A stretch of DNA of 64,000 bases, from positions 35,032 through 99,031 of the forward strand of contig JAZTXJ010000007.1 of assembly GCA_045636285.1 (NCBI GenBank). Direction: 5' to 3'. Both the position numbers and the translations under genes were made by a program. Every line of letters begins with the position of its first letter. Within the stretch, counting starts at the first letter, position 1. Source of the stretch: Eubacteriales bacterium. Lineage in GTDB: Bacteria > Bacillota > Clostridia > Oscillospirales > CAG-382. Below, piece by piece: positions 46,810 to 55,064 of the stretch. The notes beneath the pieces were generated by a model, which searched no databases, was not told where the DNA came from, and saw only the letters and a list, made by a program, of their open reading frames with translations.

Positions 46810-47435
46810 TGAAGCGCTGTGTAATAATCGGCGGCGCGCCGATAAACGATTACAACCGAATAAAAAAACTGCTTCGCGGGGACGATTTTTGTATCGCGTG
46901 CGATTCGGGGCTCAAGCATTTAAGCGGCTTGGGAATTCAACCGAGCCTTATTATCGGTGATTTCGATTCTTATGAAAAGCCGAGCACCGATACCGAAACA
47001 ATAATTCTCCCGCGCGAAAAGGACGATACCGACAGCTTTTTCGCGGTTAAGGAAGGCATATCTCGCGGTTTTTGCGAATTTCTGCTTATAGGCGCAATCG
47101 GAAAAAGGCTCGACCACAGCTTAGGCAACATTTCCGCACTGCTTTATCTCGATTCACTCGGCAAAAAAGCAAGCATAGCCGACGATTATTCGGTTATGGA
47201 AATAGTTTCGAGCACGCCTGCCTTCGTTACTGATGAATACCCTTATTTTTCGTTACTCGCTGTCGACGGCGACGCAAGCGGAATAACCGTGAAAAACGCA
47301 AAATTTCCGCTTGAAAACGCAAAAATCACCGCAGGCTACCAATACGGAATAAGCAACGAGGTGATAAAAGGCAAAACCGCCGAAATCAGCGTTAAAGACG
47401 GTAAATTACTTCTTGTTAAGGTTATATCCGAATAA
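46809..47435 (+). CDS. thiN: Thiamine diphosphokinase
   Basis: IIGDFDS and GAIGKRLDHSLGNI motifs; ATG overlaps the upstream TGA (TGATG). Confidence 0.85.
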   Translation: MKRCVIIGGAPINDYNRIKKLLRGDDFCIACDSGLKHLSGLGIQPSLIIGDFDSYEKPSTDTETIILPREKDDTDSFFAVKEGISRGFCEFLLIGAIGKRLDHSLGNISALLYLDSLGKKASIADDYSVMEIVSSTPAFVTDEYPYFSLLAVDGDASGITVKNAKFPLENAKITAGYQYGISNEVIKGKTAEISVKDGKLLLVKVISE

Positions 47436-47436
47436 A

Positions 47437-47466
47437 GAAAACGGTTGCAATGCAACCGTTTTTATT
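47437..47466. terminator. Bidirectional terminator (thiN / tandem array)
   Basis: AAACGGTTGCA a TGCAACCGTTT TT. Confidence 0.7.
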
Positions 47467-48023
47467 TATTGCTCTGTGTTCAAATCAATCATTTCGTAAT
47501 ATTTTGTATTGTACATAAATACAGGAATTTGAGGTTTATCTTTTCTTATTACGATATAAAACACGTCCCCCTCGCTGTGAATCCGCATTTCTTCGATTGT
47601 CTTAACAACCCTTCCGCACCTTTCGAAATACATTGCGTGCTGCATAACGTAACGGCCTCTGCGGTTTTTTACCTCTTGATCGTTTTCGGAAACACGTAAA
47701 AGCTTATCGATTATGATCGAATAAGAGCCGTCGGCAAGTTGTTTTTTTGATTTGTAATAGTACCATACGCAAAAAACACTCGCAGCGATCGGCACCGCCA
47801 TAATAAGCATTTGCACGACTTCTTTGCCTTTCATGTTGAGAGGAGCAGTGATTGCAAGAATCCCAAACAGAACAAACCAAACGGCACATCCGCAAAGACA
47901 GAATTTTAATTCAGATTTCACACCGTCCGCAAGCTCTGAAAAAATCGAGCTTGGAGATATTATTTGCTTTTTCTGTATGGCGTTTGCATCGCTTTTCGTG
48001 CTATCACTGTTGTAGTTTGCCAT
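47466..48023 (-). CDS. Tandem-array 2-TM protein, member 4 (unknown family)
   Basis: MANYNSDSTKSD N-terminus, two TM helices, C-terminal domain with QHAMYFERCGRV..GDVFYIV..YNTKYYEMIDLNTEQ; AAGAGGT RBS in the 13-nt gap. Confidence 0.6.
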   Translation of the reverse strand: MANYNSDSTKSDANAIQKKQIISPSSIFSELADGVKSELKFCLCGCAVWFVLFGILAITAPLNMKGKEVVQMLIMAVPIAASVFCVWYYYKSKKQLADGSYSIIIDKLLRVSENDQEVKNRRGRYVMQHAMYFERCGRVVKTIEEMRIHSEGDVFYIVIRKDKPQIPVFMYNTKYYEMIDLNTEQ

Positions 48024-48036
48024 CTTTACCTCTTAT

Positions 48037-48570
48037 TTATTGCTCGGTATTCAAATCGACCAATTCGTAATATTTCGAATTATAGGTAAGCAAGGGTGTG
48101 GTGGGGTGTGTTTTTGTTACGACAACATAGAATATATCGCCCACGCTGTTCGTGTTGGTTTCTCCGTAAGTAACGAGCACTCTTCCGCATTTTTCGAGAT
48201 AAATTGCGTGCTGCACGCTGACCGACGCATAGTTCCCCTGCAGTCTTACTTTCACTTTTTCCTCGGGAGCGACACGTTCGACCTTATCGGTAATAATCAT
48301 AAATTCGCCGTTTTTCAGCATTTGCATTGTCTTGCGGTAAGAAAAAATCCCACCCACAAGCACAACGACAGGAAGACAATAAAATATCGTGCTTATTATT
48401 CTGTGGTCTATAATTATCGCCGTAATAATAAACATAACGCATACTAAAGGCAACGCCCAAACCGATTGCTTTGCCGGCTTTTCGAAATGATCGTATATCA
48501 TTTTCGGCGTTATTTTTCTTTTGCCGTCGGAGTAATCGCTTTTCGTGCTGTTGCTGTTGTAGTTTGCCAT
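48037..48570 (-). CDS. Tandem-array 2-TM protein, member 3
   Basis: Same architecture; QHAIYLEKCGRV..GDIFYVVV..YNSKYYELVDLNTEQ; AAGAGGA RBS in the 13-nt gap. Confidence 0.6.
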   Translation of the reverse strand: MANYNSNSTKSDYSDGKRKITPKMIYDHFEKPAKQSVWALPLVCVMFIITAIIIDHRIISTIFYCLPVVVLVGGIFSYRKTMQMLKNGEFMIITDKVERVAPEEKVKVRLQGNYASVSVQHAIYLEKCGRVLVTYGETNTNSVGDIFYVVVTKTHPTTPLLTYNSKYYELVDLNTEQ

Positions 48571-48583
48571 TTTTTCCTCTTAT

Positions 48584-49144
48584 TTATTGCTCGGTATTCA
48601 AATCAACCAGTTCGTAATATTTAGTGTTGTATGCGAAAAGTGCTTTATTAGGTCTTTCTTTACTTACGACCACAAAAAATTCGTCGCCCTCGCTGTTTGT
48701 ATAGGTTTCCTGGAGCGAAATCACCACTCTGCCGCAACGGTAAAGATACATAGCGTGCTCCATATACGAATGTCTTCCGTAGCGCACGTATCTGTCGTCG
48801 GTAACGATTCGGTCGGCAGTATCCGTAATTATTTTATACCCGCCGTCCGCGAGCTTTTTCATATTGCGGTAATAGCTGTAAACGCTCGCCATAAAGATCA
48901 AAAACGGAACGCTCAACAGCAAAATATTAACAAGCGTTGCCCACTTTTTCTCCATACCGCTGACGTTTACAATCAATACAAAAAGCAGCGCAACGATCAA
49001 AAACGCAACCGATACGATAGTCATCCCCCAAAGCTCGCCCTTGTGCGAATTGGAAAGTGCATCGTATATTCTTTGGGGCGTTATCTGCTTTTTCTTATTG
49101 TCGTCGGGGGCGATTTCTGTGCTTTTGCTTACGTAATTAGCCAT
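48584..49144 (-). CDS. Tandem-array 2-TM protein, member 2
   Basis: Same architecture; EHAMYLYRCGRV..GDEFFVVV..YNTKYYELVDLNTEQ; start overlaps member 1 stop by 8 nt. Confidence 0.6.
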   Translation of the reverse strand: MANYVSKSTEIAPDDNKKKQITPQRIYDALSNSHKGELWGMTIVSVAFLIVALLFVLIVNVSGMEKKWATLVNILLLSVPFLIFMASVYSYYRNMKKLADGGYKIITDTADRIVTDDRYVRYGRHSYMEHAMYLYRCGRVVISLQETYTNSEGDEFFVVVSKERPNKALFAYNTKYYELVDLNTEQ

Positions 49145-49679
49145 TTTTTATATCCTCAAGCTTATATTCCTTGGCGTTGTATATATTCACGACGGTCTTT
49201 GGGTCGTGCCGATACACGACTATATAAAAGGTGTCGCCCACGTTTGCCGTATAGGTTTGATCGAACACAACGGCGACTCTTCCGCATCTTTCGAAATAAA
49301 GCGCGTGCTCTCTGATTTCTGTCCCTGCGCTCTTTTCGACCTTATCGTTGGGGGAAACGGCTATAACCGTATCCTCGAAAACGTAATAGGCTTCTTTCGG
49401 CTTGATTACAAGAAAGGCTACGAGCATTAACGCATAGAACAGCACTATAAGCACCGAAGCAATGATCAGCAAAACCTTTACCACGGTAGCCCAAGTAGTA
49501 TCATCGGGCAGGCAGAGCAACAGTATAACAAACGAGATCAGCAGCGAACCGAACAAAATCCCCGCAAAGAGAAGCATCTGCCGTTCCTGCGAGTTAACGG
49601 TTTTCTGCACCGAGCTGTGATCCAACTGCTTCTTTTCGGAATCCGTAATTTTTGTATTTTCGCTTACGTAATTACCCAT
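49137..49679 (-). CDS. Tandem-array 2-TM protein, member 1 (most divergent)
   Basis: MGNYVSENTK N-terminus, two TM helices, EHALYFERCGRV..GDTFYIVV core but different C-terminal end (..YKLEDIKNG); start overlaps the kinase gene by 16 nt. Confidence 0.6.
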   Translation of the reverse strand: MGNYVSENTKITDSEKKQLDHSSVQKTVNSQERQMLLFAGILFGSLLISFVILLLCLPDDTTWATVVKVLLIIASVLIVLFYALMLVAFLVIKPKEAYYVFEDTVIAVSPNDKVEKSAGTEIREHALYFERCGRVAVVFDQTYTANVGDTFYIVVYRHDPKTVVNIYNAKEYKLEDIKNG

Positions 49680-50227
49680 TCGTTACCTCTCGGATAAGCT
49701 CCGTCTATCTCAGTAACATTATACACTATATCTTTGCTTCCGTCAAGGGTTATTATTTTGCATTTAAGGAGCTTCTGCCATTCGTCGTGCATCGCGCGGG
49801 AACGCATATCGGCTCCGCCGTTGTCATACCTGCCTGCCCATTCAATAAACGCAGTATGCGTATCGTACATATCGCCGCCCGCCTCTATTCTGCTTCCGAA
49901 GCGCTCTCTTTCGCGCGATTTCAAGCGTTTGATTCTCGTTTCGGTATCGGTAACGAGCCTTATGGCAAGCGTAAACAGCGGTATCAGTTCATCACCCCAG
50001 CCCGAAAGCGAACCGGATATAACCACGTTTTCGTGTGCTTCAATATCGCGCTTCATAAGCGCAATCCGCTCTGCTTTTTCGCGTTTTACCGTGAATTTAG
50101 GGTCGGTCGGCAACCAAAAATAATCGTCGGTATCCATAAAGAAATAACCCGATTTTTCGCAAAAAGCACGCCCAAGCGTGCTCGTTCCCGCACCCGAAGC
50201 GCCAAAAATATGTATGATTTGCTTCAT
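49664..50227 (-). CDS. P-loop NTPase, FlaR/adenylate-kinase-like small kinase
   Basis: Walker A IFGASGAGTSTLGRA followed by MDTDDYFWLP, as in FlaR-like 'topology modulation' kinases; ATG 50227 forms an ATGA overlap with the upstream stop. Confidence 0.7.
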   Translation of the reverse strand: MKQIIHIFGASGAGTSTLGRAFCEKSGYFFMDTDDYFWLPTDPKFTVKREKAERIALMKRDIEAHENVVISGSLSGWGDELIPLFTLAIRLVTDTETRIKRLKSRERERFGSRIEAGGDMYDTHTAFIEWAGRYDNGGADMRSRAMHDEWQKLLKCKIITLDGSKDIVYNVTEIDGAYPRGNEWVIT

Positions 50228-50895
50228 CTGTATTCCTCGCACAGCATTTTTTTACACCAGCAAAGCAAGGTATTGAAGGCGGTATCAAAATCGTAATCGG
50301 GGTTATTTGCAATCGCTTGTGCCGTTTCGAAAACAGCCTTGTCTTCGCAAGAAAGCGCGGAAGAAAGCTCGCGCTTGGTTTGATAAAACACATTTTCGCG
50401 CAGGTAATAGCTGTTTTGCAGAATAAAAAAGACGCTCTTATAGGTAAAAGGAAGAGATTCGCGGTTATTGCCCGAATCGGAATAAATATATCGGTGGCAG
50501 AGCTCGTGATAAATATTGCCGACGCTGAGCTTAATAAAGCTCCTTATATCGCGTTCGTCATAGTGCGGAACAAGCGCCGAGAGCTCGCCGTAATAATCCT
50601 TTGTCGTATGTAAAAGATGAGCGATTTCAAGCGCGTTCCAATTACGAAGCTCTTCGCTTCCGCAAATAAACCCGCAAGCCTTTTCGCTGTGCGGTAACGA
50701 GCCGATAACGCTTTTGTATAAATCGAGGTCGGTTGCCGAAAGTTCTTTTATAACGACCATAATATCGAAATCGCTCTGCTCGGTCGCTTCGCCGCGAAGA
50801 TAACTGCCCTGCAAGCCAAGATAGACAAGCCGAGCGCCGAACACCTTCTTCAGCTCGGATAAAATATTCTGTATATGCAATTCTGCTTCAATCAT
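50224..50895 (-). CDS. Pol-beta-superfamily nucleotidyltransferase, ANT/Lnu-like
   Basis: GLQGSYLRGEATEQSDFDIMVVI matches the GS..(D/E)xD minimal NTase motif of aminoglycoside/lincosamide nucleotidyltransferases; helical C-terminal half; ATG 50895 forms an ATGA overlap with the regulator stop. Confidence 0.7.
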   Translation of the reverse strand: MIEAELHIQNILSELKKVFGARLVYLGLQGSYLRGEATEQSDFDIMVVIKELSATDLDLYKSVIGSLPHSEKACGFICGSEELRNWNALEIAHLLHTTKDYYGELSALVPHYDERDIRSFIKLSVGNIYHELCHRYIYSDSGNNRESLPFTYKSVFFILQNSYYLRENVFYQTKRELSSALSCEDKAVFETAQAIANNPDYDFDTAFNTLLCWCKKMLCEEYR

Positions 50896-51713
50896 TCTTC
50901 GTTCCCCCGTGCACAAAGCTCTGTAATCCTTGCTATCTGCCGTTCGAAAAAGGTTACGTAATTTTCATAGAAATAGTTCGCGTCGGTTGTAGAATTTCCG
51001 AGTATCGCGATAAGCGAAAGCGCCTTTTCGGTTTCGGATATTGCGCTTTCGTATTCGCCCCTCTCCTCGAAGCATTCGGCAAGGTGCCACATCATTTGTA
51101 TTAAATTTTCAAAAGAAACCCATTTTTGCTTTTCCGCCGCCTCTTGCTTTTCTTCGCCGGTTAAAACGTAGGCGGTTTCGGTAAGGCGGGTAAAATACAT
51201 TTCGGGTATCTGCTCAATCGCCATTTTCGCGCTTTGAAGGTCGCCCTTCGCCTTATAAGCATACGCCATAAAGCGCAGTGCATCGTATTTTATACCGTGG
51301 TCGGTCGCCTTTTCGATCAGCTTGCTTGCGATTGCTATGGCGGTATCGGGATTGTTCGAATAATCGATAACGTAAAGCAGGCTGTTAAGAAGAATATCGT
51401 TTTCGGGATATTTACGCAAACCGTCTTCGAGAATACGGCGGCTTCGTTCGGGATCGCCCGTGCGGTATTTATAAGCCTCGTCGGCGATCGCTTCAACCTC
51501 CGCCTCTATCGCCTGAAGGTTGAAATCGAAAAGCTCGTCCATACTAACCCCGAAATAGCTTGCAAGCATCGGCGCAAGCGTTATATCGGGCAGTGCAATG
51601 TTGTTTTCCCACTTGCTCACCGCCTGAAACGATATACCTATGCTCGTCGCGAGCTGTTCTTGGGTTATTCCGCGCTGTTTTCTTAATTCCTTTATTTTGT
51701 TGCCGATATTCAT
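50892..51713 (-). CDS. XRE-family HTH regulator with C-terminal TPR-like repeats (RNPP-like architecture)
   Basis: IKELRKQRGITQEQLATSIGISFQAVSKWENN HTH_XRE; about 200-aa helical repeat C-terminus; TTGCAA-17-TATACT promoter upstream. Confidence 0.8.
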   Translation of the reverse strand: MNIGNKIKELRKQRGITQEQLATSIGISFQAVSKWENNIALPDITLAPMLASYFGVSMDELFDFNLQAIEAEVEAIADEAYKYRTGDPERSRRILEDGLRKYPENDILLNSLLYVIDYSNNPDTAIAIASKLIEKATDHGIKYDALRFMAYAYKAKGDLQSAKMAIEQIPEMYFTRLTETAYVLTGEEKQEAAEKQKWVSFENLIQMMWHLAECFEERGEYESAISETEKALSLIAILGNSTTDANYFYENYVTFFERQIARITELCARGNEE

Positions 51714-51773: not shown

Positions 51774-51812
51774 TAACCTCGCAAACGACACGCTTCAACT
51801 ATGGGTTGAATG

Positions 51813-51841
51813 TTGACAAACCTTTGTAACGGGTATATAAT
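51813..51841 (+). promoter_or_regulatory. Consensus promoter of the zinc-ribbon/serine-hydrolase operon
   Basis: TTGACA (51813-18) -17- TATAAT (51836-41). Confidence 0.65.
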
Positions 51842-51860
51842 CAAGCTTGAGGTGGCGAAA

Positions 51861-52304
51861 ATGAGTCTGCTTTATAAATTTATATGTAAAGGTCCGAACC
51901 TTGTTACCGAAAAAGGTGTTATCGGTGCAAAATGCAACCTTTGCAACGGCGTAATTTCAACAAACGACGATTCATGCCCTTGCGGAAATATCACAAACGA
52001 CAAACCTGTCGCGCGTTTTTCGGCAAAAGGCGGCAAAAAATCTATCGAATATATCCACAATAGCTATAAGGTCTGGGGCGGTTTTCCCGTAACCCACGCA
52101 AAATGCCCGATTTGCGAAAAATACGTTAAAATAAACGGCAACAGCGGCTGTGAATGCGGCAAAATAAGCATAGACAGTCATTCGGGGCGGTTTTCGGTAA
52201 AGGGCGACGAAAACGAAGTTTCGCTTTACGCCAAGCGCACGTTCGGTTACTTTATTTACAAGACCGTATGCTTTTTCGAAGAAATAATGGATTATTTTAT
52301 ATAG
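51861..52304 (+). CDS. Internally duplicated zinc-ribbon protein
   Basis: Two repeats KCNLCNG..CPCGNI..RFSAKG and KCPICEK..CECGKI..RFSVKG; ATG 51861 behind a GAGGTGG RBS and a consensus promoter. Confidence 0.55.
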   Translation: MSLLYKFICKGPNLVTEKGVIGAKCNLCNGVISTNDDSCPCGNITNDKPVARFSAKGGKKSIEYIHNSYKVWGGFPVTHAKCPICEKYVKINGNSGCECGKISIDSHSGRFSVKGDENEVSLYAKRTFGYFIYKTVCFFEEIMDYFI

Positions 52305-52314
52305 GAGAACAAAA

Positions 52315-53223
52315 ATGATAAATAAAGTCGAAGCATTGATAGAAATATTAAACCGGGAAAACACCGGTATCGAATCTATCGCGCTGTGGCAGGACGGCGA
52401 AATGAAGCTCGTTCACCGTTTCGTACCCGCAGGACCGCGCCTTATTTATTCCCACACAAAAAGCTTTATCTCCACCGCGGCGGGTATCGCTATCGATGAA
52501 GGCTTGCTCACGCTCGATACGACCGTTTATGAGCTTTTCCCCGATTATGCCGATATTATCACCGACGACCGCGTGAAAAACATAACTCTCCGCCATTTTT
52601 TAACAATGAGCTCGGGCTTCGGTGGCTCGTTTTTGATGAGCGCAAACCGCAGAAAGCTCGAAGGCTACCCCGATTATATCGGATATATGCTTTCAAAGGA
52701 GCTCAAGTACGCTTCGGGCGAAAAATTCGTATATTCGAATGCCGACACGCATTTAGCGGGCTGTATGGTGCAAAAGGCTTGCAAAAAACCGCTTTTGCAG
52801 TATTGCTGTGAAAAGCTCTTTACTCCGCTCGAAATGGGCTTTCCCGCTTGGGAAACCGCGCCCGACGGCACTGCCTTCGGCGGAAGCGGTCTTTATCTCG
52901 ATATAACCGAAATGATGAAGCTCGGTATTCTTTATCTCAACAAGGGCGTTTATAACGGCAAGCGCGTCGTTTCGGAAAAATGGGTAGAGCTTGCGGGAAG
53001 CAGGCAGATAAACACGGGGCACGAAGCACCGTGGCACAGCGGCTACGGTTTTCAGTTCTGGACTGTCGGCCAGCGTGAAAACGCCTTCCGCGCCGACGGT
53101 ATGTACGGTCAGTTTTCGATAGTGCTTCCCGACGAAAACGCAGTTCTCGCAATACAAAGCTCTGAACAAAACGACGTTGCGAAATTTATAGAAATATTAA
53201 TTAAGACGGTTATAGAAAAATGA
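52315..53223 (+). CDS. Serine hydrolase, beta-lactamase/class C-like family
   Basis: SHTKSF (SxxK) and YSN (YxN) motifs. Confidence 0.8.
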   Translation: MINKVEALIEILNRENTGIESIALWQDGEMKLVHRFVPAGPRLIYSHTKSFISTAAGIAIDEGLLTLDTTVYELFPDYADIITDDRVKNITLRHFLTMSSGFGGSFLMSANRRKLEGYPDYIGYMLSKELKYASGEKFVYSNADTHLAGCMVQKACKKPLLQYCCEKLFTPLEMGFPAWETAPDGTAFGGSGLYLDITEMMKLGILYLNKGVYNGKRVVSEKWVELAGSRQINTGHEAPWHSGYGFQFWTVGQRENAFRADGMYGQFSIVLPDENAVLAIQSSEQNDVAKFIEILIKTVIEK

Positions 53224-55064
53224 AAAAGCTTATTATAACGCGCGCACAAAGCGACCTTTCGGAACTTATATCTCGCATTTGCGATTGCGATATTTTATCC
53301 CCCGCAGAATCCGAAAAAGCAGATTTATTTGCATATTCGGGCATTGCCGTTCTCGGCGGAACCGAGCAGGATGCGATAATGCTTAATCCCTTCTTGCGCT
53401 CCTCGCTCGAAAAATACGCAGACAGCGGAAAACCGCTCTTTCTTGAATACCTTCATTCCTTCCGTTGCGTTTATTCGGCACAGCCGGTTCGCATCACCTG
53501 CGACAGACTCGTTTCGGCTATGGAATACGGCAGTATCGGGCAAAACAGCCTGCTCGACAGCCACTATAACCTCTATATCCGCCCGCATTTCTTAATGCCC
53601 GAAACCGAAATATTGCTTTATTATCAAAAATACACCACCGCGCACGACACGCTCGATAACCTTTCCGAAACCGACCGCCCCGCGCTTTTTAAATACGGCA
53701 ACGTAATGCACTGCGCCTTCCGTATGTCCGATTTTCTGAAAGCCGCGTTCGCTCCGTGGGAACGCTGGTGCGATCTCGTTTCCTATATTCTTTCGTTTTT
53801 GGGAATCACGCCGCCCGAGCAATACGAAAAGGGCGCGCTCCGTATTCCCGATTCTCTTCCCGAAGGTCTTGGCGAAATGCTCGACTCCTGCACCTCCCGC
53901 GCGATAACGCTTTTGCGTAATTATCTTATCTCGCCCGACGGTGTTTACGGCATACGCGAGGGCTTGAGCCACAATATCGCGCCCGACGGAAGCCGCACTC
54001 TTGCAGGCTACGTCCGCGCCGATTGCTGCGGCGAAGCGGCAGGCGTATTTCTCTTTGCAAATAACGACGAGCTTGCAAAAATTGCCGACAACCTTCTCTC
54101 GCTTTGCTACGGCCCGCTTACAATACACGAGGGCGAATTTAAGGGAATGATGCGCTGGACCGAGGAAGCTTGGAACGTTTGCTATCAGGACGACGTCGCG
54201 CGTGCCGTGCTTTCGTCGCTTCTTGCTTCTTATTTCGGTATCAGCGATAAATATTCTGCCCCCGCCTGCGATGCGCTCGAATTTCTTTGCAAAACCTCTG
54301 CAAAGGACGGCTTGCGCCCCGCAAGAACCGATATACTTGAATTCCTGCGCGAAAACAAATCGCCCCTTACGATAGCAGAATCCGAAAACGGCTATGCCAG
54401 CGCGCACTACAACGCCTATTACTCGGCGGCTCTGCTTTTGGGTTATCTTATAAACGGCAACGAGGATTTTAAAACGGTTGGTATTCGCGGGCTCGAAACG
54501 CTCATACACCTCTACCCCGAAACCGTGCGCGAGCACAGCGAAACGAGCGAGCTCTGCCGTCTTATCCTTCCGCTTGCTATATTATATAAGGTAAGCGGCG
54601 AGGACAGACACAAGGAAATGCTCTACCGCGTTTTCAACGACCTGCAAAAATACCGTCACGAATCGGGCGGTTATGCCGAATGGGACAGTGGCTACAAGGC
54701 GGCTTGCTTTAACAACGCGGGCGGCGAATGCTCGCTTCTTGCGAAAAACGGCGACCCCGTTGCCGACCTTCTTTATTCGGTCAACTGGCTGCCGCTCGGA
54801 TTTATATTCGCTTATCACGTTACCGAGGATAAGGTATTTTATAACGCTTTTGCCGACATCTGCCGTTTCTTCGCAAAAACGCAGATAGTAAGCGAAAATC
54901 CCCTTGCAGACGGCGCTTGGTGCAGAGGTATCGACCTCAACAGGCTCGAATTTTTCGGAATCCCGCACGACGTTGGCTGGGGTCCCTGCTGTATCGAAAC
55001 GGGCTGGACCGTTGCCGAAATAGCACTCGGTATGCTTTTGGGAAAAAGAATTCTCGGAATTTAA
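53220..55064 (+). CDS. Large cytoplasmic hypothetical protein (possibly alpha/alpha-toroid glycoside-hydrolase-like)
   Basis: 614-aa ORF, ATGA overlap with the upstream gene; no signal peptide; fold guess is weak. Confidence 0.5.
   Translation: MKKLIITRAQSDLSELISRICDCDILSPAESEKADLFAYSGIAVLGGTEQDAIMLNPFLRSSLEKYADSGKPLFLEYLHSFRCVYSAQPVRITCDRLVSAMEYGSIGQNSLLDSHYNLYIRPHFLMPETEILLYYQKYTTAHDTLDNLSETDRPALFKYGNVMHCAFRMSDFLKAAFAPWERWCDLVSYILSFLGITPPEQYEKGALRIPDSLPEGLGEMLDSCTSRAITLLRNYLISPDGVYGIREGLSHNIAPDGSRTLAGYVRADCCGEAAGVFLFANNDELAKIADNLLSLCYGPLTIHEGEFKGMMRWTEEAWNVCYQDDVARAVLSSLLASYFGISDKYSAPACDALEFLCKTSAKDGLRPARTDILEFLRENKSPLTIAESENGYASAHYNAYYSAALLLGYLINGNEDFKTVGIRGLETLIHLYPETVREHSETSELCRLILPLAILYKVSGEDRHKEMLYRVFNDLQKYRHESGGYAEWDSGYKAACFNNAGGECSLLAKNGDPVADLLYSVNWLPLGFIFAYHVTEDKVFYNAFADICRFFAKTQIVSENPLADGAWCRGIDLNRLEFFGIPHDVGWGPCCIETGWTVAEIALGMLLGKRILGI

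Follow-up and report, generated by a model that had tools for sequence, protein, structure and literature searches.

Four tandem two-transmembrane proteins with conserved ends and diverged hairpins in a herbivore-gut Clostridia genome

Why would a bacterium keep four small membrane proteins side by side, alike at both ends and dissimilar in between? The question is posed by a 64,000-nucleotide stretch of contig JAZTXJ010000007.1 (assembly GCA_045636285.1, Eubacteriales bacterium), referred to here as the window, in which a first-pass annotation had noted four consecutive open reading frames (ORFs) of ~180 aa at 47466-49679. The pattern had been read as a sign of gene conversion or diversifying selection, of horizontal origin and of an immunity-like or receptor-like role. 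The four ORFs, here m1 to m4, lie exactly where they had been placed, on the minus strand, and are homologous: they match a profile hidden Markov model (HMM) of the family with E-values of 1e-56 to 1e-84, so their paralogy is far beyond chance. The best explanation that we can offer has three parts, namely a self-contained operon, an array whose ends would be held by selection on the protein while its copy number changes by unequal recombination, and a possible role in protection within the membrane; taken as a whole, we regard it as plausible but short of probable. Gene conversion does not appear to have produced the locus, nor does it look like a foreign AT-rich island.

Anatomy of the array and of its products

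The four genes are predicted to form a single transcription unit, with a sigma-70-type promoter of its own and a shared terminator (Table 1). The promoter agrees with the consensus at 11 of 12 positions and is probably a strong one of the constitutive type. Its -35 element, spacer and -10 element are kept 5' of the first family gene, regardless of the upstream gene, in all type A loci, by which we mean nine syntenic loci in related metagenome-assembled genomes (MAGs) from herbivore guts. The stop codon of m1 and the start codon of m2 overlap by 8 nt, and gaps of 13 nt, each with a GAGG ribosome-binding site, separate m2 from m3 and m3 from m4. Over the full-length alignment m1 is 27-28% identical to m2-m4, while m2 shares 38% identity with m3 and with m4.

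The motifs quoted by the first-pass annotation hold in the alignment. All four proteins carry the N-terminal tip M[AG]NY[VN]S and the core [EQ]HA[MLI]Y[FL][EY][RK]CGRV ... GDxF[YF][IV]V; m2-m4 end in YN[TS]KYYE[LM][VI]DLNTEQ, and the C-terminal tail of m1 differs, as had been noted. Two transmembrane (TM) helices are predicted for 101 of the 117 members of the wider superfamily, and the external loop between them is very short. On average, 3.3 lysine and arginine residues precede TM1 and 3.0 follow TM2, compared with 0.4 in the loop, a bias that obeys the positive-inside rule and places both termini and the C-terminal domain in the cytoplasm (N-in/C-in). The proposed topology is thus upheld, and an AlphaFold2 model agrees with it. 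The suggestion of a receptor for an external ligand did not fare as well, and such a role is unlikely for a soluble ligand since almost nothing is exposed outside.

The AlphaFold2 model, built for m2 from a 48-sequence family alignment (mean pLDDT 84.7 over the full length), starts with a disordered tip (residues 1-14) and a short strand (19-21), followed by two long helices (23-61 and 66-99) packed as a hairpin and by a beta-rich C-terminal domain (C-domain). The part that precedes the membrane is a K-x-I-T-P strand followed by the helix that enters it. Modelled in isolation (pLDDT 91.9), the C-domain has the order b1-b2-b3-short helix-b4-b5 and is confidently predicted to be a five-stranded OB-fold-like barrel. 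A Foldseek search with this model gave no significant structural match (best E 0.043), and a viral structure library added nothing to the assignment; the best weak neighbors, 3RD4, LEF-3, Stn1, PriB, Mop and DUF2500/3Q6C, are all small barrels of the OB type. The closest of these are PROPEN_03304 (3RD4; E 0.043, probability 0.99, TM-score 0.44-0.50) and DUF2500 (PF10694; 3Q6C), with a TM-score of 0.48-0.55 on the target, an E-value that is not significant and no Pfam DUF2500 match. Both are small structural-genomics barrels with no assigned function, and both differ from the C-domain in having only 6-10% sequence identity to it, at non-significant E-values, and literature on DUF2500, PROPEN_03304 and YhhM held nothing relevant. 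Proteins of the bPH_2 YdbS/YdbT type have a cytoplasmic N-terminal tail, a TM hairpin and a small cytoplasmic beta domain of PH fold with a C-terminal helix. Their gross layout is that of m1-m4, but there is no Pfam bPH match, and the modelled domain is OB-ordered, has its helix between b3 and b4 and lacks a C-terminal one.

The first-pass annotation did not recognize the domain, and no curated family matches it. Searches of m1-m4 against Pfam, NCBIfam, PADLOC and PHROGs returned only sub-threshold matches on hydrophobic segments, as did Pfam searches of 33 isolated C-domains, ten distant members and all 117 superfamily members. The weak matches that recur (DUF2207_C, Holin-X and DUF4131) all fall on the hairpin, and the scores shown for them are below the curated cut-offs. 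Sequence-profile searches of the PDB with close-family and superfamily profiles gave TM noise only.

Relatives do exist. When 5.8 billion clusters were searched by word index, 45 relatives came up (clusters at 90% identity), all of ~180-190 aa, without a Pfam domain and labelled as hypothetical or as coming from a Clostridia MAG. An exhaustive profile search with the C-domain extended the family to 177 representatives (clusters at 50% identity) at E <= 1e-3, 27 of them at <= 1e-10; nearly all are 160-200 aa long with the domain at the C-terminus, and all are unnamed. Gut Clostridia MAGs and metagenomes are the source throughout, and the family is rare. Distant members are without the MANY tip and retain the pre-TM K..(I/L)T.E...L segment together with the motifs F.IV.D, YF...GR, GD.FY.VV and YN.K.YE. 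The only close relative of m1 is P0007 (94% identity, on a 1-kb contig). Even if its function should prove mundane, the locus defines an unannotated family of ~177 representative clusters with a confident fold prediction and a conserved N-terminal linear motif, and merits a new family entry.

Within the close family the tip M-G/A-N-Y-x-S is near-invariant, and the pooled synonymous divergence (dS) there is 0.68. Because its synonymous sites are as diverged as those elsewhere, the constraint would act on the peptide and not on the RNA. The Gly variant of the tip resembles the eukaryotic N-myristoylation pattern MGxxxS, probably a coincidence in bacteria. One metagenomic member, P0105 (378 aa), consists of two complete modules, each with two TM helices and a barrel, fused head-to-tail, which hints that modules may act as pairs or oligomers.

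Evolution of the array

The contrast between conserved ends and a diverged TM middle was borne out: among m2-m4 the amino-acid identity is 0.80-0.93 over the last 15 residues and 0.11-0.22 over the TM region. The description of the 5' and 3' nucleotide ends as nearly identical was an overstatement, since identity among m2-m4 is 82-87% in the last 15 codons and 64-92% in the first 12, with 92% reached only by m3/m4; over the TM region the window paralogs share 29-47% of their nucleotides. In the last 15 codons the proportion of nonsynonymous differences (pN) is 0.03-0.08 and that of synonymous differences (pS) 0.53-0.70; the C-terminal end of m2/m3, for example, has a pN of 0.03 and a pS of 0.63. 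Paralog pS is 0.5-1.0, near saturation, in all segments, the conserved ends included. A permutation test in the style of GENECONV found no significant conversion tract in the six pairs (best p 0.04), and in each 90-nt window a paralog is closest to its positional ortholog from a different genome and in no case to one of its sisters. Gene conversion of the array ends, which the first-pass annotation had suggested as one possibility, is therefore rejected by per-segment dS, by the permutation test and by the nearest-neighbor scan. With synonymous sites saturated, tracts absent and orthologs as nearest neighbors, the sequences argue that the conserved ends are kept by purifying selection on the protein.

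Between orthologs, the pooled omega (dN/dS) is 0.15 for the tip, 0.22 for the pre-TM segment, 0.43 for the hairpin and 0.16 for the C-domain, and by this measure the TM hairpin is the fastest-evolving part of the protein. The hairpin of m3 in the window is extreme, with an omega of 0.9-1.4 against 0-0.15 in its flanks, at a dS of 0.3-0.5; it is 42-44% identical to its orthologs where the flanks are 91-100% identical. The burst appears specific to the lineage of the window because the three orthologs agree with one another, and the stretch does not seem to have been copied from a sister gene because no other paralog is closer over it. The variable interior noted earlier is borne out in that the hairpin evolves faster than the C-domain; the burst is confined to one lineage.

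In the family tree m2 groups with the first copies elsewhere (L007_1, 91% identical, L008_1, L001_1 and L010_1; slot A), m3 with the second copies (L010_2, L008_2 and L001_2; slot B) and m4 with L010_3, the third copy of L010 (slot C); m1 is a lone deep branch. Since the slots are positional orthologs, the duplications must predate these species. Type A loci share the order 614-aa protein, beta-lactamase-fold gene, HTH-TPR regulator, array, convergent thiamin pyrophosphokinase (TPK), HD, YgjV, MBL and GalK, and hold one, two, three or four family copies at the same syntenic site, in agreement with the expectation that copy number would vary between relatives.

How copy number changes can be seen in L007, which has a single gene. 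Its promoter, 5' untranslated region and ATGGG start match m1 of the window; the sequence then switches from m1 to m2 inside or after the shared block AATTACGTAAGC (N-Y-V-S) and is m2-like up to the stop codon, which is followed by the terminator that in the window follows m4. As both junctions fall in conserved end blocks, this m1/m2 chimera bears what we read as the signature of unequal homologous recombination at these blocks, and the locus offers a clear worked example of copy-number change. The first-pass reading thus holds in part, though in another form than gene conversion. Because the locus is a mosaic, it does not show whether L007 lost copies or the window gained them. Between the window and L007 the nucleotide identity is 0.75-0.83 in the housekeeping flank, against 0.85 in TPK, 0.90 in m2, 0.95 in the remnant of the AAA_18 kinase gene and 0.93 in the nucleotidyltransferase (NTase) gene; between the window and L008 and L001 the same flank is at 0.81-0.89, TPK at 0.74 and m2 at 0.78-0.83. 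From these figures we take it that related lineages have exchanged the stretch running from TPK to the NTase gene. Multi-copy loci have also arisen independently among distant members (L027, L024 and L025).

A different kind of duplication is present in L013 (6846-8573), where two family copies flank a partial (152-aa) TPK duplicate and an identical promoter stands before each. Promoter, gene and neighbor fragment were duplicated here as one segment; in the tree the copies group with different relatives, L019_1 and L011_1.

The AT-richness of the block had been put at about 20 points, from GC figures for sample lines that proved wrong. The block has 42.6% GC against a window mean of 47.2% (standard deviation 2.0% for windows of equal size), a shift of ~4.6 points; it is the lowest-GC stretch of the window and falls in the lowest 2% of equal-sized windows, and its 60-nt lines range from 27 to 53% GC (mean 43%). 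The deficit lies mainly at codon positions 1 (GC1 0.456 vs 0.511) and 2 (GC2 0.314 vs 0.376) and can thus be put down mostly to amino-acid composition (Ile, Leu, Phe, Lys, Asn, Tyr). GC3 of m1-m3 is 0.51-0.57, inside the range of the 27 other window genes (0.485-0.61), and only m4 has a low value (0.435). A recently acquired AT-rich island whose gene ends were homogenized by conversion would account for the low GC of the block, the low GC3 of m4 and the conserved ends, but saturated synonymous sites in those ends, the lack of tracts, positional orthology, conserved synteny and the host-range GC3 of m1-m3 make it barely credible. A phage or plasmid origin was rejected as well, as searches of 2.9 million viral contigs, of phage records and genomes, and of plasmids revealed no relatives. 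What survives of the proposed horizontal origin is thus the exchange between related lineages; a foreign source is contradicted by the synteny in nine loci, by the GC3 of m1-m3 and by the lack of phage or plasmid kin.

Outside the type A clade the family is found in other settings, and no partner gene is universal across its loci. Type B loci, seen in four MAGs of which some also have a type A locus, hold a single copy in a tight operon. That operon (L006, 4700-13415; also L016, L017 and L018) starts with a MerR/DUF1836 regulator, a 206-aa membrane protein and a Band_7 protein (473 aa), continues with three unannotated membrane proteins, the family member and a 153-aa protein with two TM helices and a beta-domain, and ends with an ABC ATPase, an ABC-2 permease and a 180-aa membrane protein. 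Comparison by hhalign of the family with the 206-aa protein and with two other neighbors of the "2-TM plus domain" kind gave probabilities below 1%; the 153-aa protein, too, is unrelated by hhalign. Members of types C and D, and the more distant ones, are standalone genes beside housekeeping genes, and a scan of metagenome contigs for distant family members yielded no confirmed locus.

Candidate functions

Our leading guess, a tentative one that we rate below even odds, is that the array is an immunity- or protection-type repertoire that works inside the membrane. Every hairpin would have its own membrane-embedded antagonist or target, met within the bilayer, and through the invariant barrel and the N-terminal tip all copies would be linked to a common cytoplasmic partner, or to each other as an oligomer. 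This guess leads because of the dynamics of the array, the repeated independent expansions and the association of type B loci with an exporter. Features of the kind expected in biological conflict are the multi-copy loci of distant members, the fused P0105, the type B operon with its Band_7 and ABC-2 exporter genes, and a variable, resistance-like cargo. The immunity-like reading first offered for this locus therefore stays a plausible hypothesis. If it is true, the array would represent a new family of intramembrane-recognition proteins, acting in immunity or as sensors, in uncultured herbivore-gut Clostridia.

An analogy is offered by the esaG, tipC and tsaI immunity arrays of type VII secretion systems (T7SS) in Firmicutes (Garrett et al. 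2022, PMC9484751). These are tandem, non-identical paralogs with similar 5' and 3' end blocks and variable interiors, and homologous recombination between the blocks changes their copy number; TsaI is a membrane protein, whose conserved part was proposed to contact a constant partner and whose variable part the toxin (PMC9484751). Like them, m1-m4 are non-identical tandem paralogs whose conserved ends recombine to alter copy number. Unlike them, m1-m4 have no Pfam match to DUF600, DUF443 or TipC and no adjacent cognate toxin or T7SS genes; their paralogs are far older, with saturated dS and a conserved slot order, and the family has 1-4 copies where T7SS arrays reach 16. If the reading holds, the locus would be a second independent case of the end-block and unequal-recombination design, here without a linked toxin.

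A number of observations weigh against a protective repertoire. Neither beside the array nor in the ten other large ORFs of the window did a toxin, bacteriocin or secretion gene turn up; those ORFs are housekeeping genes, among them PolA, radical-SAM enzymes, MatE, an ABC exporter and a histidine kinase. The family consists for the most part of single genes that stand alone in housekeeping surroundings, and the duplications are ancient with their slot order kept, unlike the fast turnover of immunity islands. The best-conserved part of the protein is its cytoplasmic domain, which would fit a housekeeping adaptor equally well, and the OB-fold assigned to it rests on a prediction that has no significant structural match. 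The faster evolution of the hairpin is what would be expected if only its composition were constrained, and the burst with an omega near 1 occurred in one lineage only. A bolder version of the proposal is improbable in our judgment: here the array would be a toxin-less chromosomal recognition repertoire, whose hypervariable hairpins detect or neutralize a bacteriocin, the TM domain of a toxin or a phage membrane protein, whose tip or acidic C-terminal tail reports to the XRE-TPR regulator by sequestration, and whose members are reshuffled by crossing-over and interspecies exchange.

A housekeeping adaptor ranks closely behind the immunity-type repertoire, and the other roles discussed below are less likely. 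On the adaptor hypothesis, unlikely but to be taken seriously, the proteins are accessory subunits or scaffolds anchored by hairpins of low specificity; the old paralogs would be subfunctionalized, the hairpins would drift neutrally, constrained in nothing but their hydrophobicity, and the changes in copy number would be incidental. The chromosomal core context, PolA included, and its conserved synteny agree with this, as do the single-copy genes beside housekeeping genes in other lineages, the near-consensus and probably constitutive promoter, the strong purifying selection on the cytoplasmic parts and the age of the duplications. It sits less well with the repeated independent expansions, with four copies against one in close relatives through recombination, with the exchange of the segment between lineages, with the m3 burst and with the confinement of the family to a narrow set of gut Clostridia instead of broad conservation. 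The array might otherwise be tied to the XRE-TPR regulator encoded upstream of it, to which we attach a low probability. In B. subtilis the polytopic membrane immunity protein SdpI is encoded beside SdpR, an ArsR-type repressor that it could sequester; here the TPR domain would bind the tip or tail, and the regulator would be sequestered or set free in response to a membrane event that the hairpin senses. The analogy, which serves this explanation only, is that the array too is encoded near a regulator, but no homology was found. The XRE-TPR gene stands directly upstream on the same strand in 8/8 type A loci for which the DNA on that side is available, the proteins have short terminal peptides, disordered and invariant, of the kind that TPR domains bind, and XRE-type HTH genes also occur near distant members in L024 and L027. 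The type A loci, however, are one syntenic clade and so count as a single observation and not as independent evidence, and types B, C and D keep the MANY tip without such a neighbor. The regulator has the RRNPP layout (HTH and TPR, about 270-300 aa), but its sequence matches in the PDB are to generic XRE HTH domains, with none to PlcR, Rgg, PrgX, NprR or AimR; no gene for a secreted pro-peptide was seen among its adjacent genes, where no systematic search for small ORFs was made. A palindrome, TTCAACC-N3-GGTTGAA (51790-51806), is conserved in the window, L001, L010 and L004 at ~85-100 nt 5' of the regulator start, upstream of the promoter that serves the regulator itself, and is a likely autoregulatory operator. 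It is missing from the array promoter, no operator common to the two promoters was found, and in L010 a terminator-like hairpin separates the regulator from an array that has a promoter of its own; direct control of the array by the regulator is thus not indicated.

Holin- or antiholin-like proteins, or hairpins of a defense effector, are more improbable still. Oligomers would permeabilize the membrane under the gating of the barrel, and paralog pairs would act as activator and inhibitor, which would suit the paired copies and the fused double module. Holin-X (PF07332, holin superfamily III, Phage_holin_3_6) matches the hairpin in 15/117 members (best E 9e-6), PADLOC gives a weak "CARF, 2 TMs" match on m1 (E 0.018), and the neighboring NTase matches the PADLOC candidate PDC-S09. 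The PF07332 scores shown are 18-22 bits, though, below the curated 28.4 bits, and all lie on hydrophobic segments; the family is not found in phage or prophage lysis cassettes and has no viral, phage or plasmid relatives, and the viral fold library held nothing. Most loci lack the NTase, which is optional cargo, and a strong promoter of constitutive type would be unexpected for a lethal effector. Very unlikely, finally, is an NfeD-like partnership with SPFH/flotillin proteins. Short forms of NfeD (PF01957), such as B. subtilis YuaF and P. horikoshii PH0471, have a TM anchor and a soluble C-terminal OB barrel, with which the modelled layout and OB-type fold of m1-m4 agree, and the type B gene shares its operon with Band_7. 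Pfam gives no NfeD match for m1-m4, the 33 C-domains or the 117 members at E-values up to 1, the top 50 fold matches include no structure of NfeD, and the N-terminal tip and EHAxY...CGR...GDxFY are not NfeD features as far as tested. The window locus has no Band_7 gene or other SPFH partner; in type B the Band_7 gene lies at a distance of three genes and comes right after the 206-aa gene, which is unrelated to the family by hhalign. The NfeD-likeness of that 206-aa gene is itself a reading by eye, as it has no Pfam NfeD match.

Coordinates, neighboring genes and minor features

The features of the locus are collected in Table 1. The array has for neighbors the HTH-TPR regulator, the NTase, the AAA_18 kinase, TPK, HD, a beta-lactamase-fold protein and an enzyme-like 614-aa protein. 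Regulator, NTase and kinase genes are on the same strand as the array and upstream of it, with overlapping stops and starts. The window has both the NTase and the kinase, L008 has AAA_18 only, L007 has the NTase and what is left of the 3' end of AAA_18, and L001, L010 and L004 lack both; this variable presence makes the interval between regulator and array look like a small cargo hotspot.

Table 1. Positions in the window of the array, its control elements, its conserved blocks and the genes upstream.
Feature	Position	Strand	Remarks
Bidirectional intrinsic terminator	47437-47463	both	12-bp stem; common to the array and the convergent TPK gene
m4	47466-48023	-	185 aa; slot C paralog
Conserved 3' block of m4	47466-47513	-	last 15 codons and stop; site class of the L007 3' junction
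m3	48037-48570	-	177 aa; slot B paralog
Block of m3 equivalent to the m4 3' block	48037-48084	-	
m3 TM hairpin	48319-48459	-	residues 38-84; lineage-specific replacement burst
m2	48584-49144	-	186 aa; slot A paralog
Block of m2 equivalent to the m4 3' block	48584-48631	-	
Conserved 5' block of m2	49127-49144	-	ATGGCTAATTACGTAAGC, codes MANYVS; other partner of the L007 junction
m1	49137-49679	-	180 aa; most divergent paralog
Conserved 5' block of m1	49662-49679	-	ATGGGTAATTACGTAAGC, codes MGNYVS; one partner of the L007 recombination junction
Array promoter	49746-49718	-	TTGACG, 17 nt, TATAAT, TG right before the -10 element (TGTATAAT); in the 3' end of the AAA_18 gene
AAA_18/PRK06217-type kinase	49664-50242	-	192 aa
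NTase	50224-50916	-	230 aa; NTP_transf_2; PADLOC candidate PDC-S09 (3.5e-10)
XRE-family HTH and TPR regulator	50892-51713	-	273 aa; Pfam HTH_3 (1.2e-17) and several TPR families

An Rfam search of the locus found no RNA element, its sole match coinciding with the terminator hairpin; this weak match to STnc540, an enterobacterial small RNA (47426-47462, plus strand; 23.6 bits against a gathering threshold of 38, E 0.064), was treated as chance. A 242-aa ORF at 48587-49315 on the plus strand, antisense to m2 and m1, is almost certainly a shadow of the sense genes.

On the far side of the regulator lies, in the window, a divergent Cys-rich ORF and, in relatives lacking that ORF, a beta-lactamase-fold gene. 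The Cys-rich ORF (51810-52304, plus strand, 164 aa) has several CxxC pairs and no family match; besides the window, L010 alone has it. A perfect TTGACA-17-TATAAT promoter at 51813-51841 falls inside it as listed, so that its true start is probably the Met near 51861. Further on, the 614-aa soluble protein (53220-55064, plus strand), which has no Pfam or NCBIfam match, is translationally coupled to the beta-lactamase-fold gene and is present in all type A loci. With 62-68% identity there, far below the 85-93% of the neighboring genes, it appears to evolve unusually fast.

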